This document shows positions 1-39,753 of a stretch of 39,753 nucleotides of DNA, piece after piece (positions within the stretch are counted from its first letter, which is position 1; every line of letters starts with the position of its first letter). The translations under genes and the position numbers were made by a program. Origin of the DNA: Craspedostauros australis (taxonomy: Eukaryota); NCBI GenBank assembly GCA_030167865.1, contig JALAGF010001698.1:1-39753 (forward strand). The letters run 5' to 3'. Below the pieces are notes generated by a model that saw only the letters and a list, made by a program, of their open reading frames with translations, ran no database searches and was not told the DNA's origin.

Positions 1-1391
1 ATCCATGCGCACGTCGCGGCACCTGTCCCCACCCATCTGCCACCTGTCCCCACCAATCCGCCACCAACCCCCAGACCTGCATACAACGCGGCGAGCATGA
101 TGACTGTTGCTCCTCCTGAGCCCTCGTCTGTTCCTGTGGCTTCTCCTGCTGCTGTTCGTCNNNNNNNNNNNNNNNNNNNNNNNNNNNNNNNNNNNNNNNN
201 NNNNNNNNNNNNNNNNNNNNNNNNNNNNNNNNNNNNNNNNNNNNNNNNNNNNNNNNNNNNNNNNNNNNNNNNNNNNNNNNNNNNNNNNNNNNNNNNNNNN
301 NNNNNNNNNNNNNNNNNNNNNNNNNNNGAAGTTACTTTCGAGTTGCCAGGTGGGACTTGCTACGGCGACGTCAAAGCGTCGATCAAGGAGCAAGGACGCG
401 TTTTGGAGGTGGGGTTGAAGCAGAACCATGAACTCGGATCCACTGCAGCTACGGACAAGGAGCTGCTTGACCGCCTGAACGAGAAGCTGCCTATACACTT
501 CAACATGCGTTCTTTTCAGGGACAACGCGAGCGGGGCGAGTCGTACGCGCTTGCTGTTCGCAGGATGTGTCGCGGACACCCCCAACCCTACCGCATTCAC
601 AGGGAGATTCTCCCCATCCAAGTGAGTGATCGTTTTGAGATGACCACAGATCATGCGATGCANNNNNNNNNNNNNNNNNNNNNNNNNNNNNNNNNNNNNN
701 NNNNNNNNNNNNNNNNNNNNNNNNNNNNNNNNNNNTTGATTGTTCGGTTGGTACCGGTGTACTCCGCGAATCCAGTGGTGCACAGTGCCACCAACTTGGC
801 ACGCTACGGGCGCAAGGCGGTGAATAAAACAACTAAGCATTCCGCAGGCATTACAATGGATGGGGATGATTACTCCTCGCTTGGGGAGGACGAAGTCACA
901 TTTGTTCCGTCCTCTGCTGCTCGTCCACCGATTCCACAAGGCCGCCGAGGAACCGGATTCGGAGAATGCTACGAGGTAAGCCCCATCGATGCCACACTCG
1001 CCTCTTGCGCATGACATCAACTTGCACACTCACACCTGCTTTCTTTTTGTTTCCGATTGGCCAGTCTGCTCCTNNNNNNNNNNNNNNNNNNNNNNNNNNN
1101 NNNNNNNNNNNNNNNNNNNNNNNNNNNNNNNNNNNNNNNNNNNGTGCTCCCCGTGCCATGGCATGCCGTTCCAGCCCAGCGGCTGTTCCTCCTGTCCCCG
1201 TCTCGGTTGTGGTGCCGCCTCCTGTCCCCTCCTGTGCCCGCGCACCGCGCATCGCTAAAACGAAGCGTAGAAAGCGTGAGACTGTGTTGATCGACCTCCA
1301 CATGGACAGCGATAGCGACAGCGATTTCGAAGCCACACCAGCACCTGCGAACTTGAAAAAGGGCGATGACGACAGCACAGAGACCGAGTGA
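1..1391 (+). CDS. Element-encoded protein, copy 1, partial (exon <1-975, intron 976-1064, exon 1065-1391)
   Basis: GTAAGC donor at 976 after GECYE, pyrimidine tract and CCAG acceptor at 1064. The phase-0 splice joins ORF 97..1014 to ORF 966..1391 in frame, with the same structure as copy 2. Confidence 0.7.
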
Positions 1392-1592
1392 GACTATCCC
1401 GACCACCCCTCAACACACGAACAAGAATAACACTATTAACGAATAACTCTAATCACCATGATCACACTAGGACGATTTGTTGTCTACGGTAGTACCTTCT
1501 AGATAGTCTAATTTGTTGCAACGGATTACTTGGACTACTATCGGAGTCCCATCGGCAAACCGACCAATATATGGTCTTTACCGCGGTTCCCA
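1..1592 (+). mobile_element. Interspersed element, copy 1 (5'-truncated by the window start); inverted copy of 36728-~38295
   Basis: Direct alignment with the reverse complement of 36728-38295. Similarity ends abruptly after ...TTTACCGCGGTTCCCA (1592), with different flanks in the two copies. Contains three N runs (161-327, 663-735, 1074-1143). Confidence 0.85.
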
Positions 1593-3612: not shown

Positions 3613-6600
3613 ATGGGAGCCTGCGGTTCGAAGGTCGTGACGGAGGACCTCATCAACGATCCCGAGAAGATCAACCGCGTGCACAGCGAACATCAGGATA
3701 TCGTAAGTCTTTCGCGACGCCACACTATTGTCTGCTTTGAACATAATATATGCATGGTATGGTATGCTATGCTATGGTATGGTAGTGTACGAGTAGACCG
3801 TCTGTTCTGCTCTGCACTGCTCTGCTCTGTATGGTGGCATCCCTTGTACTCACCCACTCAATCACCCATTCATCTCAAACATCCTATTCTCCTCGTTTCA
3901 TCATATCGTATCGTATCATATCATCGAATACCACACAACACACACAGGACGAAGCGGAACTCCAAAAACACCTCGCCAACCTCAACGCGTACGCCAAGAC
4001 GAGCAACCGGCGATCACGCAGGAAGAAGAAACGATCGGCGCGCAAGCGATCGCTCGCGGATCAGCTGCAGGAAAGCAGCGAGAGCAGCTGCGCCGGTTCC
4101 GTCTTGCCGTATGCCGAATCGGATGACTACTCGGATGGGATCTGCGCCCCACTCGGGATGAAGACGACGGGCAATGTCGTCTTCTTGGCGCCCACGCCGG
4201 AGTCGTCCAAGAGCGAGGATCACAACGAGCGGGAGGAGATCTACGATATTGGGGATCACAACCAACTGGAGGCGATCTATGATATGGGGGATCACAACAG
4301 TATCTGCGAGGAGAGTGTGGCGCGGACTCTCAGTCAGGATACCTTGGATGATGAAGGTGTGGAAGTTGACGATGAACGCAATAAGAACGATGGCAACAAC
4401 GACGATGATGGTGATGCTGCCGCTGCTGGCGAAGAAGAAGGTATTGAGGTCGAACATGAGCGCAAGACTAGTGTCGAAGAGAGTGTCGAACCAAAGGATG
4501 AACAAAACAAAGACAATGTTGAGGAAGAAGGCATCGAAGTCGAAGATCAACGCAAGGCTAGTGTTCAAGATAGTGTCGAACCTCAGGAGGAGCAAACCAA
4601 ACACAACGCTGAGGAAAAAGGTATTGAGGTTCAGGATGAGCGCAACAAGGACAGCACGAGTACCGAAGAGGGGATTGAAGTACAAGACGAGGGCAGGGAT
4701 ACTATCGGCGAAGGCATCGAGGTCCGCAACGAGAGCAAGCGAAGTCTTTGCGACAGCATTCATATTCAGGATGTGGCGAACAGCACCAGCGAGGGCATCG
4801 AAGTTCGCGGAAGGAGAAGCAACAGCAGCGATAGCAATAGCGACAGCAACGGCAACAGCCGTAACATTCGCATCCATCATCAGAACAGCAGCGCCAGTAG
4901 CACCATCAGCAGGCCCAATCGCAAGAGCGGCGATGCGCATCGCGACAAGCAAACAGAGATGGAAGGCAGCGACAACTCACAAACGTCTCCCAGCACAGCG
5001 CCAACCGTCGCAACGCCCACCTCCAGGATAGAGGACCTGGAATCGTCCGCCTCGACGGTGGGATTCAACAACACCGCCAACACGGTCGCCAGCACCGGCA
5101 CCGTCATATCAAGTGTTCTGGCGATGCCAGGCGCCAACCCGCTCACGGAGGTCAACGCGGCATCCTACCCCCTGCCTTCCTTGCAGTCAGGCGAGTCGTC
5201 TGGCAGAGCGTTTGGCAAGTACATTCGCAGTTCCTCCACGGAGTATGATGAATTCACCTGCACTTCCGTGGAGGAAGAGGCCACTCTCAACACCGCCAGC
5301 GGCGATGGTTATGCCACCAACGAAACCTCCCTTTACGAAGAGATGACGGTCGACAGCAGGAGTTTCACCGAGTACACGATACAAGAGGAAACCGTCGTGG
5401 ATCCCACGGAGGGCAACGATTCTACCGATGTCGATACCGACATGAAGAGTGATGACGGCAACAGTGACGACCATGATGACAGTGTTGACGACCATGCTGG
5501 CAGTGATGAGAATAACACCGATGCGGATGCGGTTGTGGATGAAGAGGAAATCTTCGAGGAGACGGTGGCATCCACGCCACCCGTCAAATCAAATGAGGTG
5601 TTCATTGAGGTTGGAGAAAACGTTGAGAACATCGCATTTGATTGGAGTGGCGTGCCCGAGTTGACATCTCCCGTCAGCCCCTTGACGACCTACTCGCACG
5701 CGCAGCCGCAAGCGAAATCGCAACAACAGCAGCAGCAGATGTCTGCGTTGCACGCCAAACCACCGCCCGGAATTCATCGCACGATCCCGCTGCGGGACAC
5801 GTTGCCCAAACAGGGACGTACCCGCAACAACATCCCGTGGCTCAACGGTCAGCAGCACCGGTTACTGGGCGAGACGAGCTTTGACACTTCGGCGAGCGTC
5901 GAAAGTGGATTCAGCGAGTTGACTCCGCTCACTGCTGCGCAAACGGACCAACCATCGGTCCGCACGTTCATCAGCGCGAGCGCGCACGTCAACACGATTC
6001 CAATGCCAACACCACAGCGCACCATGTTGCCTCCTTCGCTCATGGAGACGGTCCATTCTTCCAGCGCTTCCGTGTCCGTGTACGAGGAGTACACCATTGC
6101 GGACACTTGCAGCGTGTACGAGGTCGTGACAGTGGCGGGTCGCGACGAGCAGATCCTGCGCGTGGCGGATTTGGACTTTGGTGGTTTGGGTGGCAAGAAC
6201 AACAGCGATGACAACGACGACGACGAATTAACCGTGGACAATAAGAGTCTGCCGGAGCATGATCACATGCAGTTCGATCTGTCGTTGCTCAAGGTCCGAT
6301 CACAGCCAGGAATCACTGACGATTCACAAAGGATAGAGGAGAAAGCGAACGAGGAAATGAAGGCAGCTGATGGCGGCAAAGAGGAGGACAAGCAGCAAGT
6401 GGAGGTGGCTGTGCAAGAAGTGAAGGCAGATGTCAGTGACAGTGGCAAGGAGAAGCCAGAAGCTCAAGCGGAAACTCGAGCAGAAACTCCGCAGCAAGCG
6501 CCAGCAGCCGAAGAAGTGCAAGAGAAAGCTTCCAAGCGCAAATCCAAGAAGGCATCGAAGTGGAAGGACCGAGTCGCGAAGGCGCGGCAACGTCGAGCCA

Positions 6601-7325
6601 GCGTCGTCAACAGCGTGAACTCCAAGGACCGACTTGGGGAGACCGAAACGAATGTCAAAGAGGACGAGGAACTCCCAGCGACTTCGAACCATTGTCAAGT
6701 CGAGGCGAACGCGAATGCGAGCGTCAACGCAGTTGCGGATAGCCAAGATGAAGACAAGACCGCGCAGGAAGAAGCACCCTCCGATGTGCCTCCCTGCGCC
6801 ACGGCGACCGCCGCAGATGACGTCGATGCTTCGGAACCCAAGAAGGATGACATCGCAGACACACCATCAACAACAGAAGCAGAGGAGAAAGAGAAGGATA
6901 CGCAAGGACTCGTGCCTTTGTCCGCAAATCAGGTGGTGGCGTCCACGCTGCAAACTCTTCCAGGGACGGAAGTCGTGGATAGCAAGCCGATGATCTGGTC
7001 GACCGTCTCGAAGTCGCTGACGCACGAGGAAGGCGAGACCGAAGACGAGATGGACGAGGCCGTCGACGATCTGATCGGCGTCCTGCTCCAAAAGGCGCAG
7101 GCTCGCCTTCTGAAGAAGACGCTGAAGGTCGACTGCAACGTCGTCCTGGGCGTGACCACCACCATCGCCACCGACGGGCGTGTCGAAGAATCATCGGCGC
7201 AAGGCAAGACCAAGACGATCATCGTGACGCTGTCGGGCACGCCCTGCCGTGTCATGCCGACGGCGGACGCAGCGCCGGTCCGTGTCGAAGCCATTCCCGT
7301 GTCGCCACCACGCATGTCGACGTAG
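3613..7325 (+). CDS. Large acidic, low-complexity protein (~1155 aa) with N-terminal MGACGSK acylation motif; exons 3613-3702 and 3948-7325
   Basis: ATG at 3613, GTAAGT donor at 3703 and CAG acceptor at 3947 (phase 0) join into ORF 3831..7325. Internal EEEGIEVxDER repeats and YEEYTI/V-type repeats. Confidence 0.8.
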
Positions 7326-11459: not shown

Positions 11460-13787
11460 ATGACGACAATGCACACCCACGAGCAACCCCTGGCCGGAGG
11501 AATCCCAGAGAAGCGACCCTCCATCGCCAGCACCGTGCGTCAGTCCAACGGCAACGAGAATGGCACTGCGCACGGGATGAATGGCATCAATGGCGTTCAT
11601 GGCGCCAACGGATACGCCAACGGATACGCCAACAAACCGTCAGCTCCGCCCGGCAACTTGGTCCTCAGTAGTGCCAGCACCCCCGTGGCTTCCAATGCAG
11701 GCAACGGCGTCCCCAATCCTCCCAGCGGCAGCACGCAGCGTCCGCCACACCCCAACAACGCAAACAGCAACGCGAACAATGACTTCATGGACGACACGGG
11801 CGCCGTCTCCTTCTGCGGCTGCGGCCGACGACCAAGAGATCGCAAGTACCGCCGACGCCCCGGACCGGCCTCCTGGATCACGCAGAGGATACGGCAACGC
11901 CGCGCCTCCCAGGCCAGCAACGGCTCCATCGCCAGCGCCAGCATCCGCACGGCCGATTTCCAAGACGCCAACCAATCGCAGGTCGGCAGCTCCGTCTGGC
12001 CACCCATCAACGACACCGATTCCATGATATTCTTCGATGCCGAGCAGGAGGCCTTGGGCGATGACGAGTATCCCATCACCTTCCTCACGGACGAACCAGC
12101 GCAGCACTACATCACCTTTCAGCTGCAGCCGTTGGTGGCGACATCCAACGACCTAGTCAAGGAGAGCAAGCGCGATGCGACGGTCGCCACGAAGGAGGAC
12201 AGCGGTTCCAGTTTGGATCGCAGTCGTTCGGAGCGGCTGCAGCGAATCGTTCGCAGGCCCACGTTGGAGCATGTGGCGGCATTGCAGACGCCACCCGTCA
12301 CGGTGCCCATCAAGGGATTTCCGGGATCCCTCACGCCGCACGAATTGGAGCTTTGTGTGAGTGTCCAGCGATGCATTCATTGTTCAATATTGTGGAGTAT
12401 TGTCATATGTTGAATGACGCTGAATGAATTATGGGTGCCAACCAAACCTTATTCCTTCCTTCTCACATCTCTCCATTCTTCTCTTTTCGACGACATGCAA
12501 TTCCATGACCATCTCCACCCATCATTCAACGTCATCCCATCGCTCATTCAACCGCAGCAAAAATTCATTCGCGAGGTCCGACTGCGAGTACCCGAGGTGG
12601 CCGAGCAGGTGTACTCGATGCGCGACATCGAGGACGAACCCTACACCATCTGCCGTTGGATGCGCGCCACCAAATTCGACGTCGATGCCATCCTCCAACG
12701 CTTGGAGGACAACGCAGAGGCATGGACGCGTGCCAAGGACAGGAACTTCTACCCAGATCCAAACGAGGCCCTCGGAGCGCCCTTCAGCGTCTTCCTCACG
12801 CAGTATCCCTTCCTCAACATCGGCCGTGCCAAGAACGGCTGTCCCGTCAACTACTTCCAGTGCGGAAAGATCCGTCCGGAAGGCATCCTCTGCCTCACCA
12901 CCCTCAAGCACATGGAGGGATACTTCTGGCATCAGTTCGTCTACAAGTTCAAGATTGCCTTGCAGAACGCACGCCAAGCGAATCCAAACTTCGTGCGCTG
13001 CGAGGGCGTCAACATCCTCGATCTGTCCCACCTCTCCACCTCGGCCCTCACCTCCGACACCATGGACGTCATCAAGATCGCGGGCAAGATCTCAGACTTC
13101 TACCCGGAAACCCTGCACTGCATGCTCATCCTCAACGCGCCCTCTTTCTTCGCCATGTCCTGGACCGTCATCAAGAAGTTCATCGACCCACGCACGGCTG
13201 CACGCATCCAGGTCTTCTCCAACGCCAAGAGGGGCATGGCCAGGATGCGGGAGCTCATCGACGATTCGCAGATCCCCGCCAACTACGGCGGTGGCGGCCC
13301 CTCCGTCGAATCCGTCCTCCTGCGCGAGGCCTCCAAATCATCCTCGCTGGGAACCGCTCTGCTCAAACAGGAGTACGACCTCATGCACATCAGACGCAAG
13401 GGCGGCAAGGCCCATCACACCTTCCAGCTCAATCCAAACGAGACTCTCGAGATCCGCGTCTACACGCGATCCGTCTCCAGCGCCAAATTCGTCGTCAACT
13501 TGTCCAAGGGAGGTGAACAGACCGTCCTCAAGCAGGTCCTCGTGCGCGGTCTCCTCAGCACCAACCCGGACTCGCAGACCAACAGCCCCAACGAGGGCAC
13601 CGAATCCAACGACAGCTACGTCAGCCTCGATCCCATGGCCTATCCCACAGAAAAACTCATCAGCCACAATATCAAGGGGCCCGGCACGATCATCATCGAT
13701 GCGATTGATCAGGATGACGTCAATCATGCCAAGTGGCATGGCCAATCGAGGGGGTACTTTTTGATCGTCGGAAATTATTCGAGATAA
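11460..13787 (+). CDS. Sec14/CRAL-TRIO lipid-transfer protein (~708 aa) with disordered N-terminus, FFAT motif and possible GOLD-like C-terminus; exons 11460-12356 and 12558-13787
   Basis: GTGAGT donor at 12357 and CAG acceptor at 12557 (phase 0). Sec14 motifs ICRWMRATKFDV, GRAKNGCPV, NILDLSHL, FYPETLHCMLILNAPSFFAMSWTVIKKFIDPRTAARI, IPANYGG. Confidence 0.9.
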
Positions 13788-17422: not shown

Positions 17423-20175
17423 ATGGGCGCCGAGGGTGAATCATCGACGACAGCAACCGAGAGGATATCACGGACAGTGTCGGTCGAAGCATCCGAAGCA
17501 ACATCTGAGGTGGATTTCGTCGAAGTGGATGCCTCCGTTCCAGCGTCATATGCGCCGCAGCAGGAGGCTCAGGCACCGCAAGCGGCAGCAACCGACAGCC
17601 CGAAACCAGCCACGACGACTAGTGAGCCTCCAGGTGCTGCAACACCAGAAGAAGCCAAGACGGAAGCGACCGCCAACAACACGGTCGGTCATCTCGAAAA
17701 AGTGAGTGGCGGATTCAAGCAAATTTCATGAACAATGATGCATGCACGTTGTTGCATGTCGTCGCATGCTGTTGCATGTTGTTTTCATGGTCTTGGGTAA
17801 CGCGACTTCCATGCTTCGAAGAATAGCATCCACCACTCTTGCGTTTCACATGGCATTCTATTCGTCATTATGCCATGCAATACTATCCAATGCGATTCAG
17901 AATACCCTGCATGACTTGCAATCGACCTGGATTATTGTTCGCAGCTCACAAAACGCGTTTCTTCATTTTCTCTCGCTCGCGGCGGCGCTTGTATTCCTGC
18001 TCTCATTGCTGCCGCCACCTACTGCTGCAACTTGTGTTGCAACTGTTGTTGCTATGCGACATGAATTCGATATCACAGGATCGGCAAGTATTCAATCAGT
18101 TGTTCAGCACGAGACGACCGAAGGACGGATGGGCGGGTTTGTCATCCGGCCTCAAATCCGTCGCGAGAGGGACGGCCGCCGGCGTGGCATCCCTCGTCGT
18201 GCAGCCAATCGCGGGCGCGCAACAACACGGCGTGTCGGGCTTCGTGACGGGCCTCGCAACGGGTGTGGCATCGGCAGTGGCGTTGCCCGTCACGGGCGTT
18301 TGCGTAGGCGCCTACCAGCTCGGTCGCGGCGTCGTCAATTCGGCGGAGGCCATTCAAAAGTCGCATCAGGGCATGGTGTGGGACGAAGCCAAGCGCGAGT
18401 GGTTCTACTACCGCCTTGATGAGGAGGTGGAAGAAATCAAGCAGTTGGAGAAGGAGAAGCAGAGTCAGCCCGGAGTGGGAGCGCCGGTCGGCAACGGACC
18501 TGAACGTCACGTCAAGGATCGGGAATACTACGAACTGCTCGGCGTCTCCACCAACGCCAATGCCAACGAAATCAAGAAGGCGTACTACAAGAAGGCGCGC
18601 AAGTGTCAGTAAGTATTTGGATGGAGGACTATCATGTGGCGTGTGTGTGTGTGTGTTTGCTTGCGCCGTTGTGTATTGTATATTGCGTGTTGTATTAAGA
18701 AAGAGTGGCGATCCATGTATTCATCCATTCATGTACTCATCCATATGCGCAATACTCGTACTAACATTCGCACAAACACGCATACCCCATGTGCACATTC
18801 CATCCACTCCTATCGCAGCCCCGATAAGAACCCAAATGATCCAGACGCAGCCAACAAATTCCAGGAGCTGGGGCACGCATACCAGATACTGGCGAATGAA
18901 CAATCGAGAGCGGCGTACGATCGGGATGGTAAGCCGGATGACAAGAAGCAGAGCGAGCTGCAATTCCAGGACATCGATCCTTACATATTCTTCACCGTCA
19001 TGTTCGGTTCCGACGCTGTGCATCCTTACATCGGGGAGCTGTGGATTGCCAACAAGGCCGACACTCTGCTCAAGGATTCCACGTTGGCGCAGGAGCTCAC
19101 GCAGCAACTCAAGAAGGAGGAAGGCGCGGAGAAGTCAGCGGAGGATGCCACGTTAACGGATAAGCAGCGCGAGGAGCGACGTCTGCAGATGCTGCAGCAG
19201 GATGCCTGGAAGCAGAGAAAGCGCGAAGTGTCATGTGCCGTGAATTTGAGGAAGCGTGTGGAACCGTACGTGGATGGCAGTCAGGATGAGGAGGAGTTCG
19301 TCTCCTTGGCGCAGGCCGAGGCCGCGCAGATCGTCAAGAGCGCCTTCGGTCACATCTTCCTCGAGACGATCGGCGGCGCGTTGGAATGCGAGGCGGAGGA
19401 GTTCCTGGGGTACACGCAGAATGCCTTCAGTGTGGATGGACCGGCCGCCAGCATCAAGAAACGTGCCGTGTCGATGCAGCACAACATGAAAGTCATCGGT
19501 GCTGGCTTCACGGCGGTCAAGGCAGGCAGCCAGGCCATGCGCAAGGTGGAGAGCATCAAGGAGGAGATTCAGAAGCAGAAGGCGGCCAAGGCAGCTGCGG
19601 CGGCCGCCGGCACGGAGGTGCCCGGTGAAGAAAAGAAGGATGGCGCCACCCCCGACACGACCAACCAACCAGCCGACCCCTTGGGCATGGACTCGCAGAA
19701 GGCGAAGGAGACGATGGAGCAGCTGGAGGATACGCTGCCGGCATTCCTGGACCTGGCCTGGGCCATCAACGTGCGCGACATCAACAAAACCCTGAAGGAG
19801 GTGCTGTTCAAGATCTTCCACGACGCGGATATCGACAACGCGACGAAGATCCGACGCGCCGAGGGCCTTCGGATACTTGGGCACGAATTCTACTCCATCG
19901 GCACAGCCGCGGCCGCCATGCAGGAGGAGATCCGCGGCGATCACGAGAAGGCCATCAGCAAAGCCAACGTGGAGGGCGACGACAGCAAGAAGTCGTCCGA
20001 CAAGCCGATGCGGTCGCGCGAGGATATCAGCATGATCAAATTGCGGGCCGAGGTGGCCGCCATGACGACGTTGGCCAAGGCGCAGGGTCAGGAAATCAGC
20101 GAGAAGGATGCCGAAGAACTGATCAAGCAGCAGAAGGCCATGAAGGCGTACATGCAGAAAACGCAGGCGTCGTGA
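17423..20175 (+). CDS. DnaJ (J-domain) protein with DnaJ-X domain (~721 aa); exons 17423-17701, 18079-18608, 18819-20175
   Basis: [61 protein letters not shown]. The HPD motif is rebuilt across intron 18609-18818 (CA|C). DnaJ-X-type C-terminus WAINVRDINKTLKEV..RRAEGLRILG. Exon 1 and intron 17702-18078 are slightly less certain. Confidence 0.9.
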
Positions 20176-27655: not shown

Positions 27656-29104
27656 CTACTCCCCGAACACCCGATCGAAGGCGGTGCGCCGCAAGTATTG
27701 CGACACGTCCACGGTGGAGGGTTGCTTCCCGCCCGGCAGCATCCACGGCGATGCCTGTTCGGTTGCGTAATGTTGCCCCACGAGCTTGCTGCGCTGCTTC
27801 TTGCCATTGACAAAGGTGATCTTGGCCTTCGTGTTGGACCCCAAGAAGGGCTGCACCAGGTTCCACAGCATGGCGAAGCTGGAGGGCGCGTCGAGGATGA
27901 AGATCTTGTGGACCTGACCGGCGTAATGATTGCGCAGCGCCAACATGAATTCCTTGCCGATTTCCATGGGCGGGGAATGCTTCCAGGCTGAAAAACCGGC
28001 GCAATCCACGACGGCGTTGATGGTTGGGAAGTCGTCATTGTTGTCGTTGTCGTCATTGGTGCTTGCGGCAGCTCGCTCGCGGTGTCGTCGCGCCGAGCAG
28101 GCGATGGCACGTTCCATCGTGTAGACGGCCTCCTTCAACGTCCATTCCTTGTCGTGTCCCTTGACGCAACGTGGTCGGAAGATGAAGGTGGCGCGCCCGT
28201 CCTTATCGTATCCTTGCACGTACATCTTTTCGGAAGATAGGTGATGATGCAGCTTTTGCTGAATGTGTTGTCGCTTGGATTGAGAGGGCGATGATGATGA
28301 TGATGAGCCTTCCGTGGTGCTCTCCGTGAGATCGTCGCCACCGTCATCATTGTCGTTGTTGTCTGCAGTTGCATCGAATGCCGTCATCAGATCCGCGACG
28401 TTCTTCTCCTTGCGGAATTGCAAAGTCGAACGCAGCTTCTTGAGCGCCAGCTTCTTGTTGCCCTTCTTGGATGCGAGGTAGCGATGCGCGATGGTCGTCG
28501 CGTACTTGCGCTGTTGGTCCTGCGATGCCATGTTTTTGGCGGTGTACTGCGTCAAGTACTCATAATCGGTGGCGGCCGCCAACTGGAGCTCGTCTTGCGT
28601 GAGCTGATCCAGAATCCAGTTGATCTTTTGCTTGATGATATCGTTCTCATCCTCGCTTGTGGCGGTGGTGTCATTGTCATCATCGCTGTCATCGTCATCC
28701 AGATGGAGGAGATGGCGAGTGGATTTATGGAGGTTGGAGAGGGATGTCTGCATGGTAATGGACAAGCGACGGACGGATTCTCCCACGGCGCCCAAGGATC
28801 CCTTGTACAAGAGACGGCGATCAACTGGGCGGATGGGTGTGCTGTCGGCTGGTGGTGGTGGTGGTAGCGATGTCGGAGTTGCTGCTGTCTCTGTCTCTTC
28901 CTCCCTGATGTCTGTGCAGTTTGTGACAGCAACAGATCTTGTGCCAGCAGATCGTTGCAATTGTGGTCGTTGGTTGGTGGACATGGAGGCGAGGTCGTCT
29001 GTGTTGTTGTTGCTGCTGTTGTTGTTGTCATTGACAATGTTGCTGTTGCTTTGTTTCCCCGCTTCTGCTGCTGGTTGGGACATGATGGATGCGAAGAAGT
29101 TCAT
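27656..29104 (-). CDS. CRAL-TRIO (Sec14/Pdr16-like) domain protein, 482 aa
   Basis: HRYLASKKG..ALKKLRSTLQFRKE, MYVQGYDKDGRA, VYTMERAI, AVVDCAGFS, LRNHYAGQVHKIFILDAPSSFAMLWNLVQPFL..TKAKI. Confidence 0.9.
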   Translation of the reverse strand: MNFFASIMSQPAAEAGKQSNSNIVNDNNNSSNNNTDDLASMSTNQRPQLQRSAGTRSVAVTNCTDIREEETETAATPTSLPPPPPADSTPIRPVDRRLLYKGSLGAVGESVRRLSITMQTSLSNLHKSTRHLLHLDDDDSDDDNDTTATSEDENDIIKQKINWILDQLTQDELQLAAATDYEYLTQYTAKNMASQDQQRKYATTIAHRYLASKKGNKKLALKKLRSTLQFRKEKNVADLMTAFDATADNNDNDDGGDDLTESTTEGSSSSSSPSQSKRQHIQQKLHHHLSSEKMYVQGYDKDGRATFIFRPRCVKGHDKEWTLKEAVYTMERAIACSARRHRERAAASTNDDNDNNDDFPTINAVVDCAGFSAWKHSPPMEIGKEFMLALRNHYAGQVHKIFILDAPSSFAMLWNLVQPFLGSNTKAKITFVNGKKQRSKLVGQHYATEQASPWMLPGGKQPSTVDVSQYLRRTAFDRVFGE

Positions 29105-29885
29105 GATTGCTCTGATCTATTCTATTCTATTGCCGATTGTCTCTGTTGGTACCGCCGATTGCTGTGGATGTGATTGTTTTTGCTGTTTGCGTTCTTTGGC
29201 TTGTGCAGTTTGGCGCTTGAGAGGGGGGCACACTTGCTTTGGTGATTCGAATGTAACGGGCGCTGAGGTGGCGAGGTTGTTGGGGATGTTTGGATTGTGC
29301 GTTCGTGAGGGAGCGAGTTGTCTTTGTTAGATTTTGTGAGAACATCGAATTCAATTCTGGCAAAGTCCACGAACACAACCACACAAGACCATGCAACCGC
29401 GTGGATGCTTGTGTGCGTCTCCTGCCTTAGCTGTTGCGCTGTCCAGAACGAGCACTATACAAGATCCGTCTCTTGTGCTCCTCGACTCTTTTTGATCGTC
29501 CCAAGACAGATGAGTAGTCGTGCCAAATCGTGGTGACTCGTGACTTGTGTCTTGACAAGACCCGAATGGCGAAGTGGACAAGCAATCACGAAGCAGATGA
29601 CCGCGTCACCACATCACGACATGTCACGCACGTGTTGATGTTGATGTTGATGTGCGCGCCTCCAACATCGCAGAAGAAAGGAGTGAGAGTGAGGGCAAAA
29701 GTGAGCCATCATCATTGTTCTCCAGAGCACCACTCGTCATTCGACAACACCAACAAGCGTTGAGGAAGGAACGATTGACCAAGATCTCCAACTCCGTTTT
29801 CGGCTTTGGCAGATTAGGAGCAGCAGGAGCAACAGAAGAACAAATCAAGTGCACCGACGAGTATTCTACAATATTTGGAACAACA

Positions 29886-32973: not shown

Positions 32974-35900
32974 TGTTGGATGTCTGATGTGTTGGATGCT
33001 GTTGTTGCGTTAGGGGTGTTTTGTGGTAATGTGTGCACCACACTTGCTTGCTCTCTCTCGATGTAGTTCAAGGTTCCTTGAGTGTAGCGCAAGTATGTTG
33101 ATGTTGATGTGAATGTTTGACGTGATTGTTTGATGTGAAAGTGAATGACCACATTCGTACATTCCTCCGTGCGTCAACAGGGTTGAAGCAACGAGTGACA
33201 GTTCCAGCCAAGAACAAAGCAAACCACCACAAACCAAAAACCGAGATTCAGTGGAGATACTTGGGTGGCGGCGGGAGGTGAACGATGCTGTGTGTTCGTG
33301 AAGCGCCGGAGGATGACGAAAAACACGATGTCCACTTGGATGGCTGTCGCTGGCGTTGCGAACGGTGCTGCTCCTTGACATGTCGTTCCCAATGTCCCTT
33401 TCTCCAAACCGATTAATTATTTGACATTATTTACCGTCTGATACGACGTATTAATGTCTTGGTTATCCGTCCGACATGTCACACAATTGGAACTTCGAAT
33501 CTTCCAGATTCGATTGCTGACACATTGCTGACGTCGCGGAATGAATGTGTGTTCTTTTTGATCAGTTCCGAATTGATCGGCTGAGTCAACATCGGCCACC
33601 GCATTTCGCTGTGTTGGCAAGTTCGAGTCTGCTGCTGGTCGCACCTGCAACTGCATCGAATGCGGTTGGAACTGCGATGGGCTCGATCGGCTCTGATGGG
33701 TTGCAAACCTGGAAAGTAGAGACGTGTGCAAGTCTATTCGAAACTGCATTTCTATCACTGGGATAGCTTCCAGTTGCTCCCAAAATGGAACTCGAACCTG
33801 TCTGCTTCATCTCGGGCAGACGAGAACTCAAGCCCAGCGCTCGCCTTGCCAAGTTTGATGAAATGGTGACGTTGCTGCAGCCGAGATCTTTTGGAAGCGA
33901 GCCACCTGGTGATGTTGACGAAGTCATCGATACGCAGAGTACAGAGTAGAGTGCTCAAGTGCACAGTGTGCTATCCTCCGCTGCGCGCTCTACATGATGC
34001 TCTAGATTCGTCTCCAAGGGTGTCCCGTTTTACTGCTGTCAATACAACAGATACCTATCATACAGTATCATAATGCCGGTGGTACTCAACACTCCCATTC
34101 AATTATGATTTATTTGTACTTTACCGCAGACTACATAGAATCGGAGTATCACCTATTTTTGCAAGACTCAAGTCGATATGACGTCATGTTTCGCCGAACT
34201 TTAGACCCATTCGATCAAACGCAGATGATTCGTTTGGCTAGTACTCGTGGCTCGACAGTCTACGCTGCGAGAAGTAGGCCCAGTTCTTCACCACAGCCAG
34301 ACATCTATTCATAAACTACAGCATTGGTACCTCGTGTGTATGGTATCGCACCCAGGAGGCAAGAAAGTATGCATCCAGTCTCTGATTTGATAGCGCAGAT
34401 AGTCTCTCGAAATGACCATTCCATCTGTGAGAACTGGAATGTGGCACGATCTGTTCCGCAAGATCTATGTCCAAAGAGCAAAAAGACATGAGAAAGCGTT
34501 GCGGAGTGGAGCGCGTCGTTGCGGGGCGGAGATCAATCCTGCCGTGGGAGATCTTGCTGTTGTGCTCGATCGTGATGACGACACCAACGCATTCGTATCG
34601 TATGCTTCCAAGGCGAACACAGACTTTCGTTTGTTTCTCATCCTGGCGACTACACTGACCGAAGTGTGCGAGAACACGCATCAGAGTAGTCGAATCTGTC
34701 ACTCGGTTGAAGCCGTCGATGATCTTGGTGGGTAAATCGTGGTCTTGCGCCGAAGTCTTGGATCTTTTCGATCCACGAAAGATGACAAAATTAGAGAATT
34801 CTCGCAAGCAGCCACTTCCCGGTTTCAACCACCCACGAAGACAGAGATGTGACACCTGTGCAGATTTAGTGCCAATTCCCGAATCTGGCCGAATCCGAAC
34901 TATGAGTGTCGATGGACAGACGATACCACACAAACCACGCGTAGGATCCACGTTGAGCAAATGACCGCTCCGCACAGTCATAATATATTTCAGAACAGAC
35001 AGGTTTCACCCCCCAACACCTCCGGTCACGTGAAAAAAACCTGCACAACACCGGTTTGGTTTGCTCCGAAATCGCAAAAAGTTGTTCGGAGGAATCAAAT
35101 GCTGAGCGTTTCGTGAACAAAATTGTACGCGAACAGCGCCTTTGTGGCACTGTATCAGTCCCTATTAGTCTACCACTCGATAATGTTGAGTCTACTACCC
35201 TCGGTTGCGTTTGCCACTGATGAACAATCTTCAATGAATTTGTCGTATCATTTATGTGACTATCACTCTCTGTTGTTGAATTCCATGCTTCGTTGCTTTG
35301 CATCTGCGTTCTTAGAGGCTTGTCATTCTCTGCCAAGGTGTCCTCGTCCGTTGAGAAGTTCGAAAGTGCTCGTCACAAACCCAAACACTCTCTCCACTCT
35401 TAACCATCTCCAGCATGAGCAAGAAGACTTGGAACAACGTTTATGAGAAACTTGCTTGCAAACGTGCCAGACTTGCATTCATCAACACAGCAACCAGCCT
35501 AATTGACATGCGTGAGCAGTCTACATCTGGACAGAAGAGCGCAGTCTACAACGAAAGAATTTTGTGATTGGTCAGTTCCGAAATTGCTACACGTGGAAGA
35601 CCTTTTCGCGGGACTCGATGAAATCGGGAAGAATTGATTATCCCGGTTTCGAGAGCCCATTTGAAACCGGATTCCGATTTCGTTTTTTGGGGCGACCCCA
35701 CAAGAAATGTCTCTATCTGGTTATGGTTCCTCCGCGGGACTCCGAAATCGGGCTGCGAGAATTCTCTATTGAACAGGAACGAATCGCAACCAAGATCTTG
35801 ATAGTTCCAGCGGAAGCAAGAACCTCCACGCATGGGCTCTCTGACCTTCGCCAAACAGCTGAACACCAAAGAGGATCCGGAGCAGAGTCTCTCTAGAGAG

Positions 35901-36928
35901 AGCGAGAGCAGAGCAGCACACTCGATGAAACTGGAACACTCCACCGCGTCTTGTTGGCGGGTGCGTGCCTCCTTCGCTTTGCTTTGCGCGCAAAGGGCTC
36001 CAAGAAAGGTAGAAACAAAGACTGCTTTAGGAATGCAATCATGAATTGGTGCGTCTCGTCGGAACATGGCCATCAATTCCACCTCCGACGACTTGTGATT
36101 TCCTGCAAGCAGACTGTCTCAGCCGCCATCGTACCATTCGGGTACAGGGACCATCGACCATTCTCAAGACAACACAGGACCTCACTTTTCCCAACTGTTT
36201 CGATACCCCTGTGTTGATGTAGTGAGATCTCTCCAGAGATCCCTCTCGATGACATTCTTCGGGAAATTGTGTTCTTCGCACACTTTCTCAACAACAGCTA
36301 TGCCCACACATCACATGTGAGGTTCGCGCAGGCCAAGCAAGAGTTGTCTGTTGTGAAGCTGGCGTTGTCGCGCGAGTGCCGCTTGAGCCAACCATTGATC
36401 AAAAGTTGTATCTCTGGTCTGATAGCTGTTTGCTGAGTATTGCCGCCACAGCTTTTGGGTGCGACTGAGCAACAGTTCTGACACTTGTGCGCCTTACGTT
36501 TCGTCAAGACAATTGACGGATCCGTCTCATTGTGTCCATCCATGCCTTCTTTGGGACCCATGTTCTGGCGAACAAATATGTCACAGTTTCTCATGTGCCA
36601 AATTTGCTTGTGCGGGCTGTTGGGTCCGTGCGCAAACACTCGTTCCCGTCTTTGTTTCTCTGTGCAATTTTCTTTCTTTCGTTGCACCTTTCACTCTTGT
36701 TGGTATCTTCGCGGCGCATTTGTTCCTTGGGAACCGCGGTAAAGACCATATATTGGTCGGTTTGCCGATGGGACTCCAATAGTAGTCCAAGTAATCCGTT
36801 GCAACAAATTAGACTATCTAGAAGGTACTACCGTAGACAACAAATCGTCCTAGTGTGATCATGCTGATTAGAGTTATTCGTTAATAGTGTTATTCTTGTT
36901 CGTGTGTTCAGGGGTGGTCGGGATAGTC

Positions 36929-38849
36929 TCACTCGGTCTCTGTGCTGTCGTCATCGCCTGTTTTCAAGTTCGCGGGTGCTGGTGTGACTTCGAAATCGCT
37001 ATCGCTCTCGCTGTCCATGTGGAGGTCGATCAACACGGCCTCACGCTTTCTACGCTTCGTTTTAGCGATGCGCGGTGCGCGGGCGCAGGAGGGAACACGA
37101 GGCGGCACCACGACCGAGACGGGGACAGAAGGAACAGCGGCCGGGCTGGAACGGCATGCCATGGCACGGGGAGCACGTTTGCGAGAAGCAGAACGGCGCG
37201 CAGGGCGACGAGCGACTGTCATCCTGTGCACGGACACACGAGATGGCGAAGGAGCAGACTGGCCAATCGGAAACAAAAAGAAAGCAGGTGTGAGTGTACA
37301 AGTTGATGTCATGCGCAAGAGGCGAGTGTGGCATCGATGGGGCTTACCTCGTAGCATTCTCCGAATCCGGTTCCTCGGCGGCCTTGTGGAATCGGGGGAC
37401 GAGCAGCAGAGGACGGAACAAATGTGACTTCGTCCTCCCCAAGCGAGGAGTAATCATCCCCATCCATTGTAATGCCCGCGGGATGCTTAGTTGTTCTATT
37501 CTCCGCCTTGCGCCCGTAGCGTGCCAAGTTGGTGGCGCTGTGCACCACTGGATTCGCAGAGTACACCGGTACCAACCGAACAATCAAGAGAGGCGCATCA
37601 GCCTCCACGTCGCTGTCACGGTCGTTGAGATTGACACCCGGATTGAGGAAGTCGACACCGTGCATTGCATGATCTGGAGTCATCTCAAAACGGTCACTCA
37701 CTTGGATGGGGAGAATCTCCCGGTGAATGCGGTAGGGTTGGGGGTGTCCGCGACACATCCTGCGGACAGCAAGCGCATACGACTCGCCCCGCTCGCGTTG
37801 TCCCTGAAAAGAACGCTTGTTGAAGTGTGGAGGAAGCTTCTCATTCAGGCGGTCAAGCAGCTCCTTGTCCGTAGTCGCAGATGACCCGAGTTCGTGGTTC
37901 TGCTTCAACCCCACCTCCAAAACGCGTCCTTGCTCCTTGATGGACGCTTTGACGTCACCGTAGCAAGTCCCACCTGGCAATTCGAAAGTGATTTCGAAAA
38001 CCTCGCCATGGCCTTGAGGAGAGTACACGTGACGCACAGCAGGTAAGAAGACCAGGCTGTTCTTGTTCATCCAATCAGAAATGGATTGCGCACGACTCGG
38101 ACCCTCTTGCAAGGGTGTCCCAGATACGGCACTGTTCATAAGCATGCCGGTAGCAGAGGCAGGACGAACAGCAGCAGGAGAAGCCACAGGAACAGACGAG
38201 GGCTCAGGAGGAGCAACAGTCATCATGCTCGCCGCGTCATATGCAGGTCTGGGGGTTGGTGGCGGATGGGTGGGGACAGGTGCTGCGACGTGCGCCCGGG
38301 TTGGTGGGGCGGACGGACGGGCAGTTGTCGCGACTTCGGTTTCGCCGGCTGGTGGGGAGGCGTACGCCAAACGAGAGAATGTGTCCATTGTTTGCTTCGC
38401 GTCTTCTGGTTTCTGGGTTGATACTTTTGCGATGGTGTTGTCAAATTGTTGTTTGTATTGTACGGCATTAGCGACAAGATCAGAAACGTTCGGAGAGTTT
38501 TTGGTGTCCATTCGCACTGGATAACGGGTTAGTAACGGTTTCAAATTTGTTCATTCAGAAGTGATGTGTCTGGTTCACAAACACGCAGTGACGTACCAGC
38601 TTTGGCTTCTTTCCTGGCGCGACTTCTTTTCACGGAATTGCGCAAATTGCGCAGGTTGCGAGTAAAGTTGCGCCTTGATAAGAACGCCAAGTCGGCGTTC
38701 TCGCTCCAAACGAGTCTTGCGGGCTTATCCATGGGGATCTCACCGCTCTCGACCTGTGCCCTGAGTGCGCGGATCTGCGGGTACAGCGACTCGTTCCATG
38801 CGACCCCATCGGGACTGTCCTGTTTCTCCGTAGCAGCTTTTCGTGGCAT
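36929..38849 (-). CDS. Element-encoded 583-aa protein: basic helical N-terminal domain, Pro-rich linker, HSP20/alpha-crystallin-like domain, basic/acidic tail; exons 38849-38597, 38516-37348, 37258-36929
   Basis: Intron 38596-38517 (80 nt: GTACGT..TACTAAC..CCAG, phase 1) and intron 37347-37259 (89 nt: GTAAGC..CCAG, phase 0) join three ORFs into one 1752-nt frame. Many synonymous differences from copy 1. Confidence 0.75.
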
Positions 38850-39544
38850 GTTGCAGTGGCACTTACTGTTGAATTGGGGATCAGCAACAGCTACACGTCT
38901 GTCAATGTTGGATCCAAGTTGATTATGAGATGGAGACTGCATCTTGACTTCGTTGCATTCCGCAGAGTAGAGGTTGCCGCGGGTGATCAACATGCGGCTT
39001 GCGATGTGCAGCATCCGTGCTTGAGAGGATGAGGGACCCATCAATCAACGTGTCGCAGCGTGGTAACAGTCAACGCGAAACATCGGCAGGAGAAACACTG
39101 TACAAAACACGTGTGGTGTAGAGCTCTACTCTGCCCATTTAGTTTTCAACGCATGCTGTTTGCCTGGCCAATCCCACGTTCAGTACGGCTTGCTTTAGCT
39201 GTAATTAGAATAAATGTATACATCTACTATATATATGTTAGTATTAGCATCTTATACTATATCCCTAGGCATATAAGTGTATACCTACCGTTAGTCTAGA
39301 CTCAATGCTCAACGTACGAAAAAGGACGGCTCCGGTGAGTCGACGATTGTGGAGGCACATGGTTCTTCTGTCGTGTGCGACACTCGCCCGGCGTATTCGC
39401 CGGCCACTTGTCTTCNTCGTTGACNTTTCACCATGTGCTTCATGGCGCACGACGTGGGGAGCTGGTATCTGNGNAGCCGTTGGAGCACCGATGTTTGACT
39501 CGCGTGCGCTGCACCATGTGCCTCTAAACGTCAAGCATCGGAAT

Positions 39545-39710
39545 AGACACCGACACGACATGGAATAACCGCAGACACGAACCAGGATCTTCGTGGATGC
39601 AACATGGAATCGTGTTAGAAACGAGCCAGGATGGGTGGAGACATGGCACAGAATCGCACCAGACACGAACCAGGACGTCCGGAGACACGGCACAGGACAG
39701 TCACAGAGAA
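39545..39710. repeat. Degenerate tandem repeat with a 44-bp period
   Basis: ACGA(A/G)CCAGGA at 39577, 39621 and 39665; GGAGACA(T/C)GGCACAG at 39637 and 39681; ACATGGAAT at 39558 and 39602. Confidence 0.8.
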
Positions 39711-39753
39711 CACATCGACACGAAATGAGCACCAAATGAGCATCCAATTACCG

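Follow-up and report, generated by a model that had tools for sequence, protein, structure and literature searches.

A predicted three-exon gene with a second, inverted copy in the diatom Craspedostauros australis, probably restricted to its lineage

The stretch of DNA analysed here comprises positions 1 to 39,753 of contig JALAGF010001698.1 of the diatom Craspedostauros australis (assembly GCA_030167865.1; 39,753 nucleotides, referred to below as the window). Its subject is a predicted spliced gene on the minus strand near the right end of the window, of which a second copy lies at the left end. An earlier note on this DNA, made from its letters, had proposed that three open reading frames (ORFs) are joined in frame into one hidden gene for a protein of 583 amino acids. 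Such minus-strand ORFs are present in the ORF list of the window (38541..39044, 37309..38550 and 36929..37453), and the proposal was confirmed, as each intron has a unique in-frame GT-AG solution. The product of the three spliced exons is 583 aa long when counted from the ATG at 38849 and it ends with the TGA at 36931-36929. More in-frame ATG codons occur 5' of position 38849, at 39041, 39014, 38993 and 38942 (derived by hand from the ORF translation), which makes the start uncertain. In this gene, called copy A hereafter, exon 1 (38597..38849, minus strand like the other parts of this copy) contributes 84 codons and 1 base if the ATG at 38849 is used. It is followed by intron 1 (38517..38596), exon 2 (37348..38516; 389 full codons), intron 2 (37259..37347) and exon 3 (36929..37258; 109 codons and the TGA). 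The peptide strings quoted in the earlier note were all found in the translation (EVFEITFELPGG begins at 38004 and LLIVRLVP ends at 37567), apart from a slip in the spacing of the tryptophan motif, which reads W-x8-RALRAQ and not W-x8-LRAQ.

For intron 1, with its donor GT at 38596, two AG candidates were tried and the frame stayed open only with the AG at 38518, which gives an intron of 80 nt. For intron 2, with its donor at 37347, the product of 583 aa was obtained only with the acceptor at 37260 (an intron of 89 nt), the other in-frame AG corresponding to an intron of 5 nt. Retention of either intron leads to a stop within 13-18 codons. Intron 1 has a GTACGT donor, a GC content of 0.43, in-frame stops and a TACTAAC branch site 14 nt 5' of its CAG; intron 2 starts with GTAAGC and shows a pyrimidine tract and a CAG at its 3' end. 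Both donors resemble GTAAGT and GTACGT, with which two introns of neighbouring host genes begin; these introns were placed by domain continuity in a DnaJ gene and in a chromate-transporter gene.

When the window was compared with itself, positions 1-1592 (plus strand) appeared as an inverted copy of 36728-38301 (minus strand), with a DNA identity of 93-98%. This copy B is new here and was overlooked by the earlier note. The match between the copies consists of four main blocks and, next to the left window edge, a piece of 31 nt, and it is broken up by N runs alone (161-327, 663-735 and 1074-1143 in copy B). Copy B is truncated by the left edge and its exon 1 and intron 1 fall outside the window; what is visible is a part of exon 2 up to position 975, intron 2 (976-1064), exon 3 with its stop up to 1391 and the 3' flank up to 1592. 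The frames are open in both copies, and the sole indel in the coding sequence compared is an in-frame insertion of 21 nt at 54-74 of copy B. It is situated in the proline-rich part of exon 2 and falls between 38267 and 38268 of copy A; the motif CACCTGTCCCCACC occurs repeated in copy B.

The 3' flank that the copies have in common (36728..36928 on the minus strand in copy A) is identical at 198 of 201 bases. At its end, ~200 nt 3' of the stop codon, the similarity breaks off sharply at ...GGTCTTTACCGCGGTTCCCA, and the sequence beyond is unrelated. The terminal 20-mer of this boundary has two occurrences in the window, both at the copy ends. The copies are ~35 kb apart, inverted and convergent, with host genes between them. 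No further recent duplication was detected in the comparison of the window with itself, and a regular-expression search of its six frames revealed no second exon 1 motif outside the gene. The earlier note had counted single-copy homologs against its proposal; the gene is not single-copy, the second copy with its sharp 3' boundary being 35 kb away. Repeats of such a size, bracketing 35 kb of host genes, could mediate an inversion of the interval.

The two copies can be compared over part of exon 2, intron 2, exon 3 and the 3' flank, exon 1 and intron 1 being present in copy A alone. They differ at 36 of 714 bases in exon 2, at 15 of 254 in exon 3, at 1 of 89 in intron 2 and at 3 of 201 in the flank. 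Among complete codons the comparison shows 50 differences, 32 of which are at third positions (chi-square p=2.4e-5). According to the Nei-Gojobori method (Sd 31.5, Nd 18.5), exon 2 has a pN/pS ratio of 0.18 and exon 3 one of 0.22 (Fisher p=1.9e-9), low values that are found in the proposed frame alone: in the two shifted sense frames the ratio is 1.3-2.9 and stops occur in both copies. Exons 2 and 3 are thereby shown to be translated, each in its proposed frame, and to be under purifying selection. Since the constrained frames of the two exons differ, the same comparison implies that intron 2 must be spliced out. The conclusion on coding is valid for the copies as paralogues or as alleles alike. 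Judged by the sequence of its two copies, the locus is a real intron-containing protein-coding gene.

The divergence is patchy. Two tracts are almost without differences, 37461-37149 (2 of 240 bases) and 36908-36728 (2 of 181), and besides intron 2 these tracts extend over 114 nt of exon 2 and into the beginning of exon 3. Because coding sequence as well as the intron is taken in, the pattern looks like gene conversion between paralogues and not like a special constraint on non-coding DNA.

The predicted product has a mass of ~64 kDa and a pI of 9.5. Its exon 1 segment (pI 10.9) was modelled by AlphaFold2 from the single sequence with a mean pLDDT of 75.6 and a pTM of 0.57, and the model contains helices at residues 24-35, 44-50 and 59-83. 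Together these form a predicted basic three-helix module (residues 24-83, encoded by 38601..38780 on the minus strand), the third helix of which is rich in R, K and N (RNLRNLRNSVKRSRARKEAKA). The helical and possibly DNA-binding N-terminal domain that had been suggested in the earlier note is thereby supported. Foldseek returned nothing at E<=0.001 with this model; homeodomain or Myb/GARP DNA-binding domains made up 20 of the 50 fold neighbours listed, all of them weak matches. Because of the high pI and the arginine-rich third helix, it is reasonable to suppose that the module binds DNA or RNA.

The N-terminal ~137 residues of exon 2 form a linker with 52% P/A/S/T, and the C-terminal ~250 residues constitute a conserved region without an assigned fold. 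The tail encoded by exon 3 is basic (pI 11.0) and rich in P, A and S. Within it, at aa 542-565 (36986..37057, minus strand), KRRKR is followed by VLIDL and then by the acidic and serine-containing DSESDSDFE, which we take to resemble a nuclear localization signal (NLS) and a SUMO-interaction motif (SIM) with casein-kinase-type serines. Copy B retains this arrangement, the changes being confined to flanking or acidic positions. The product might accordingly be pictured as a nuclear adaptor that is associated with nucleic acid or chromatin: the basic three-helix module could contact DNA via its long arginine-rich third helix, a flexible proline/alanine-rich linker of ~140 residues would join it to the ~250-residue region, and the basic tail would provide the NLS-like KRRKR together with VLIDL and an acidic/serine motif of the SUMO-binding kind.

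Relatives were sought in several collections, exhaustively for exon 2 and by word index for exon 1. A phmmer search with exon 2 of 1.84 billion representative proteins gave 0 matches at E<=0.001, and none of the 7521 candidates from a word-index search with this exon scored. For exon 1 the word index yielded 54 candidates among longer proteins, none of which scored, and no candidate among proteins of similar length. Nothing was found in NCBIfam, and PHROGs gave one sub-threshold match, to a family without an assigned function (E=0.026). A sequence search of the PDB with exon 2 returned nothing significant (best E=1.4, in the proline-rich part). The ESM Atlas contained nothing usable for the central region, and for exon 1 its best match scored 0.85, short of the 0.9 level. 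Two scans of metagenome contigs and one of viral contigs produced pattern matches, among which no relative was confirmed. Scans of the window for Rfam families and tRNAs were blank.

These results make it fairly probable that the locus is a lineage-restricted, locally duplicated gene of the diatom, encoding a protein that is probably nuclear, without detectable relatives elsewhere. Lineage-restricted genes are common in diatoms. Like the orphan gene families known from these organisms, the studied gene has no detectable homologue outside its genome, a product that is rich in disorder and basic, weak codon adaptation and a local duplication with purifying selection. A difference of substance from these families was not found, and they are the best-fitting category. 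In a type of genome that is rich in such genes, one more of them carries modest weight. Its practical value is that an unannotated-looking spliced gene was recognized as real from the window alone, by means of the comparison with its paralogue; in addition, it pairs what may be a DNA-binding module with a conserved region without an assigned fold.

Several observations weigh against this interpretation. The codon usage is atypical of a well-expressed host gene: the exons score 0.008, -0.052 and -0.069 bits/codon (exons 1, 2 and 3) as compared with 0.21-0.43 in 8 of the 9 Pfam-supported ORFs of the window, and GC3 is 0.56-0.66 in the gene and 0.65-0.78 in those ORFs. Among the six frames the proposed one has the best codon score for exons 1 and 2, and for exon 3 it is marginally second to one opposite-strand frame (-0.069 vs -0.057). 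Such weak scores suit a young or poorly expressed gene, and would suit a foreign or mobile origin too. Furthermore, no peptide of copy A or B was found in a protein collection that includes the transcriptome of this organism. This points weakly to an expression that is low or conditional; by exact look-up, 1 of 10 translations of neighbouring ORFs was found there, the DUF6824 protein, which is 100% identical to a transcriptome-derived protein. The sharp end of the duplicated unit ~200 nt 3' of the stop, with unrelated flanks, is what a mobile unit would look like as well. Finally, the assignment of the NLS and SIM is a post hoc match to short motifs, and a motif of this kind arose in 51 of 5000 shuffles of the protein (1%).

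The most serious alternative is a mobile origin. In the earlier note the gene was considered to be borne by a transposon, possibly of the Harbinger type. More generally, a mobile or repeated element could carry it as cargo or as an accessory gene, with the copies as insertions of one family and the conserved 3' 200 nt as a cis-acting terminus. The inverted copies with their common boundary would suit this, and so would the weakly host-like codon usage and the missing transcriptome peptides. Likewise, intron 2 and the 3' flank together differ at 4 of 290 bases, whereas the 237 synonymous sites carry ~32 differences (Fisher p=2e-8), and a low pN/pS between copies is a pattern of active element lineages. 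However, the low-divergence tracts extend into exons 2 and 3, which resembles the patchy gene conversion described above and not selection on non-coding termini.

Furthermore, the machinery of an element was not found. Of the 97 ORFs in the whole window that reach 130 aa, Pfam scans covered 41 (the longest per locus), and in the region 32.1-39.75 kb they covered all 70 ORFs of 60 aa or more; neither set contained a transposase, reverse transcriptase (RT) or integrase domain. A neighbouring transposase of the DDE_Tnp_4 type, which the earlier note had proposed to look for, was likewise not present among the scanned ORFs of the window. Inverted or direct repeats bracketing the gene were not found in the window. 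The last 60 nt of the 3' end had no inverted or direct partner above the shuffle level in the 900 nt upstream of the gene (38850-39753; score 16, shuffle mean 16.4), and the terminal 20-mer is, as mentioned, confined to the two copy ends. Exon 1 had no Myb/SANT match in Pfam at E<=10. The neighbours are host genes, and the lack of relatives among the representative proteins, metagenome contigs and viral contigs argues in the same direction. The claim of a transposon-borne gene was thus not substantiated. Just two copies are present in the window, neither of which shows the 5' end of the unit, as no more than 0.9 kb of the sequence upstream of copy A lies in the window, and none of that upstream of copy B. 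On balance we consider a mobile origin unlikely. Should many bounded copies exist genome-wide, the gene would qualify as a candidate for a chromatin factor of a new kind, carried by a diatom element.

PIF/Harbinger transposons have a Myb/SANT-like accessory gene, and a 3-bp duplication of the TWA type is their target-site duplication. The studied gene resembles these elements in being multi-copy with a defined unit boundary and in having an N-terminal domain that might bind DNA. It differs from them in that a nearby DDE transposase and a Myb_DNA-bind match were not found within the window. Terminal inverted repeats (TIRs) and a TWA-type duplication at the visible 3' end were not seen either, in a window that may not include the 5' end of the unit. 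The Arabidopsis parallel that had been drawn for the gene is sound as far as its background is concerned, since HDP1 and HDP2 are described as Harbinger-derived anti-silencing factors (PMC5339849); nothing ties the studied gene to them. A literature search on diatom Harbinger/Myb elements yielded, in the portions of text it returned, no description of such a gene.

The second claim of the earlier note on the protein was that its central region contains an alpha-crystallin domain (ACD) of the HSP20 type. In the form in which it can still be entertained, residues ~223-430 would be a very divergent beta-sandwich of the ACD/HSP20 or CS type with two long insertions, which would fit either origin of the gene. 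Pfam hmmscan of all three exons gave 0 families at E<=10, the HSP20, CS and related models included. A custom profile was built from 41 distinct ACD sequences (Escherichia coli ibpA/ibpB and HSP20 loci of Pseudomonadota genomes). Against the 208-residue central region this profile, which is bacterial only and without a eukaryotic positive control, scored 6.0 bits, a value reached by 2 of 1000 composition shuffles. Since the region had been picked for its motif likeness, the shuffle test is not independent. The sole scoring part is a stretch of 37 residues (VFEITFELPGG...VLEVGLKQNHE; 37891..38001, minus strand) that is almost unchanged in copy B. It maps to profile positions 94-128 of 137, which correspond to the C-terminal strands beta7-beta9 of the ACD, and not to the beta3-beta5 register in which the earlier note had placed its 'LPG...VKV...VL.I' block. 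Neither upstream nor downstream of it did the rest of the central region align to the profile. With hhalign a probability of 14.3% was obtained over 32 columns at 41% identity, as against 0.8% in the register of the note. The single-sequence AlphaFold2 model of residues 223-430 (mean pLDDT 31.4, pTM 0.18) is too poor to be used for the fold, which in the ACD is a beta-sandwich of seven to eight strands.

The likeness to the HSP20 family (PF00011) therefore comes down to a stretch of 32-37 residues with the pattern hydrophobic-x-F-x-LP...A-S-x-K...G-x-VLEV-x-L, resembling the final strands of an ACD. The ACD holds two internally similar 'x-LP-x...VL-x-[VI]' segments, and because it contains two of them a lone stretch of this kind cannot define the domain. 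The protein differs from the family in that it has no profile match at the usual thresholds and no colinear match to the remaining domain. As far as sequence comparison goes, neither a significant match to the HSP20 profile nor a colinear cover of the ~90-residue domain from beta2 to beta9 was obtained. The domain proposed earlier was not supported by these comparisons, and the gene should not be filed as a member of the alpha-crystallin/HSP20 family. Even the very divergent sandwich appears quite improbable. IDM2/IDM3 and ACD15/ACD21 are nuclear or chromatin ACD proteins of plants; what the studied protein has in common with them is its features of a nuclear protein.

It is also conceivable that the two copies are an artefact of assembly and that the gene is single-copy: they could be two haplotypes of the same locus, or the draft scaffold could contain a repeat that was collapsed or misjoined. 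The three N runs of copy B are 167, 73 and 70 nt long and the homologous stretches of copy A measure 167, 73 and 73 nt. Because these lengths are nearly equal, the runs suggest uncalled or masked bases of a repeated region rather than true gaps. Single Ns are found near the other end of the window (39416, 39425, 39472 and 39474), and the identity of the copies is within the range of divergent alleles. However, the copies are inverted in one continuous sequence in which nothing else is duplicated, the sequences past the 3' boundary are unrelated and neither junction has an N gap. An artefact is thus hardly probable.

Least credible of all is the combination of these ideas, in which the unit of more than ~2 kb would be an unrecognised mobile or self-propagating diatom element whose product unites a three-helix DNA-binding module, a divergent ACD-like sandwich and a SUMO-binding tail and acts on chromatin silencing, a very improbable reading that, if true, would give protists a counterpart of the IDM/HDP and ACD15/21 systems of plants. 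Since the two CRAL/TRIO genes of the window are also inverted, a large palindromic segmental duplication was considered as well; it was rejected, as these genes share just ~33% identity and nothing else is duplicated.

The gene of interest, which we regard as probably lineage-restricted, lies among neighbours that were identified by Pfam as a GT61 glycosyltransferase, two CRAL/TRIO proteins, a DnaJ/DnaJ-X protein, a proteasome subunit, the DUF6824 protein, a thioesterase and a chromate transporter. DUF6824 has a stramenopile and diatom range. The two CRAL/TRIO genes (12414-13784, plus strand, and 27659-29116, minus strand) are ~33% identical in their best tblastx segment and are old paralogues. 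The DnaJ intron (~210 nt, ~18608-18818, plus strand) interrupts the HPD motif of the J-domain, with the boundaries CA/GTAAGT...TCGCAG/C.

Some features of the window stand apart from these genes. An ORF of 1164 aa at 3831-7322 (plus strand) resembles host genes in its codon usage (0.22 bits/codon) and is without a Pfam match; it contains an internal direct repeat of 125 nt at 4431-4645 (77.6% identity, offset 90). The region of 3.5 kb between the chromate-transporter gene and the studied gene (33400-36900) has a lower GC content (0.48). It contains several minus-strand ORFs of 130-230 aa without a Pfam match and with codon scores close to zero, which may represent either additional orphan genes or intergenic DNA. 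Upstream of the studied gene, at a distance of 0.7 kb, four degenerate copies of a 36-nt unit are present at 39552-39697 (67-78% identity to the reference copy, spacing 22-44 nt); they might belong to the promoter region or represent subterminal repeats of the unit that is duplicated.

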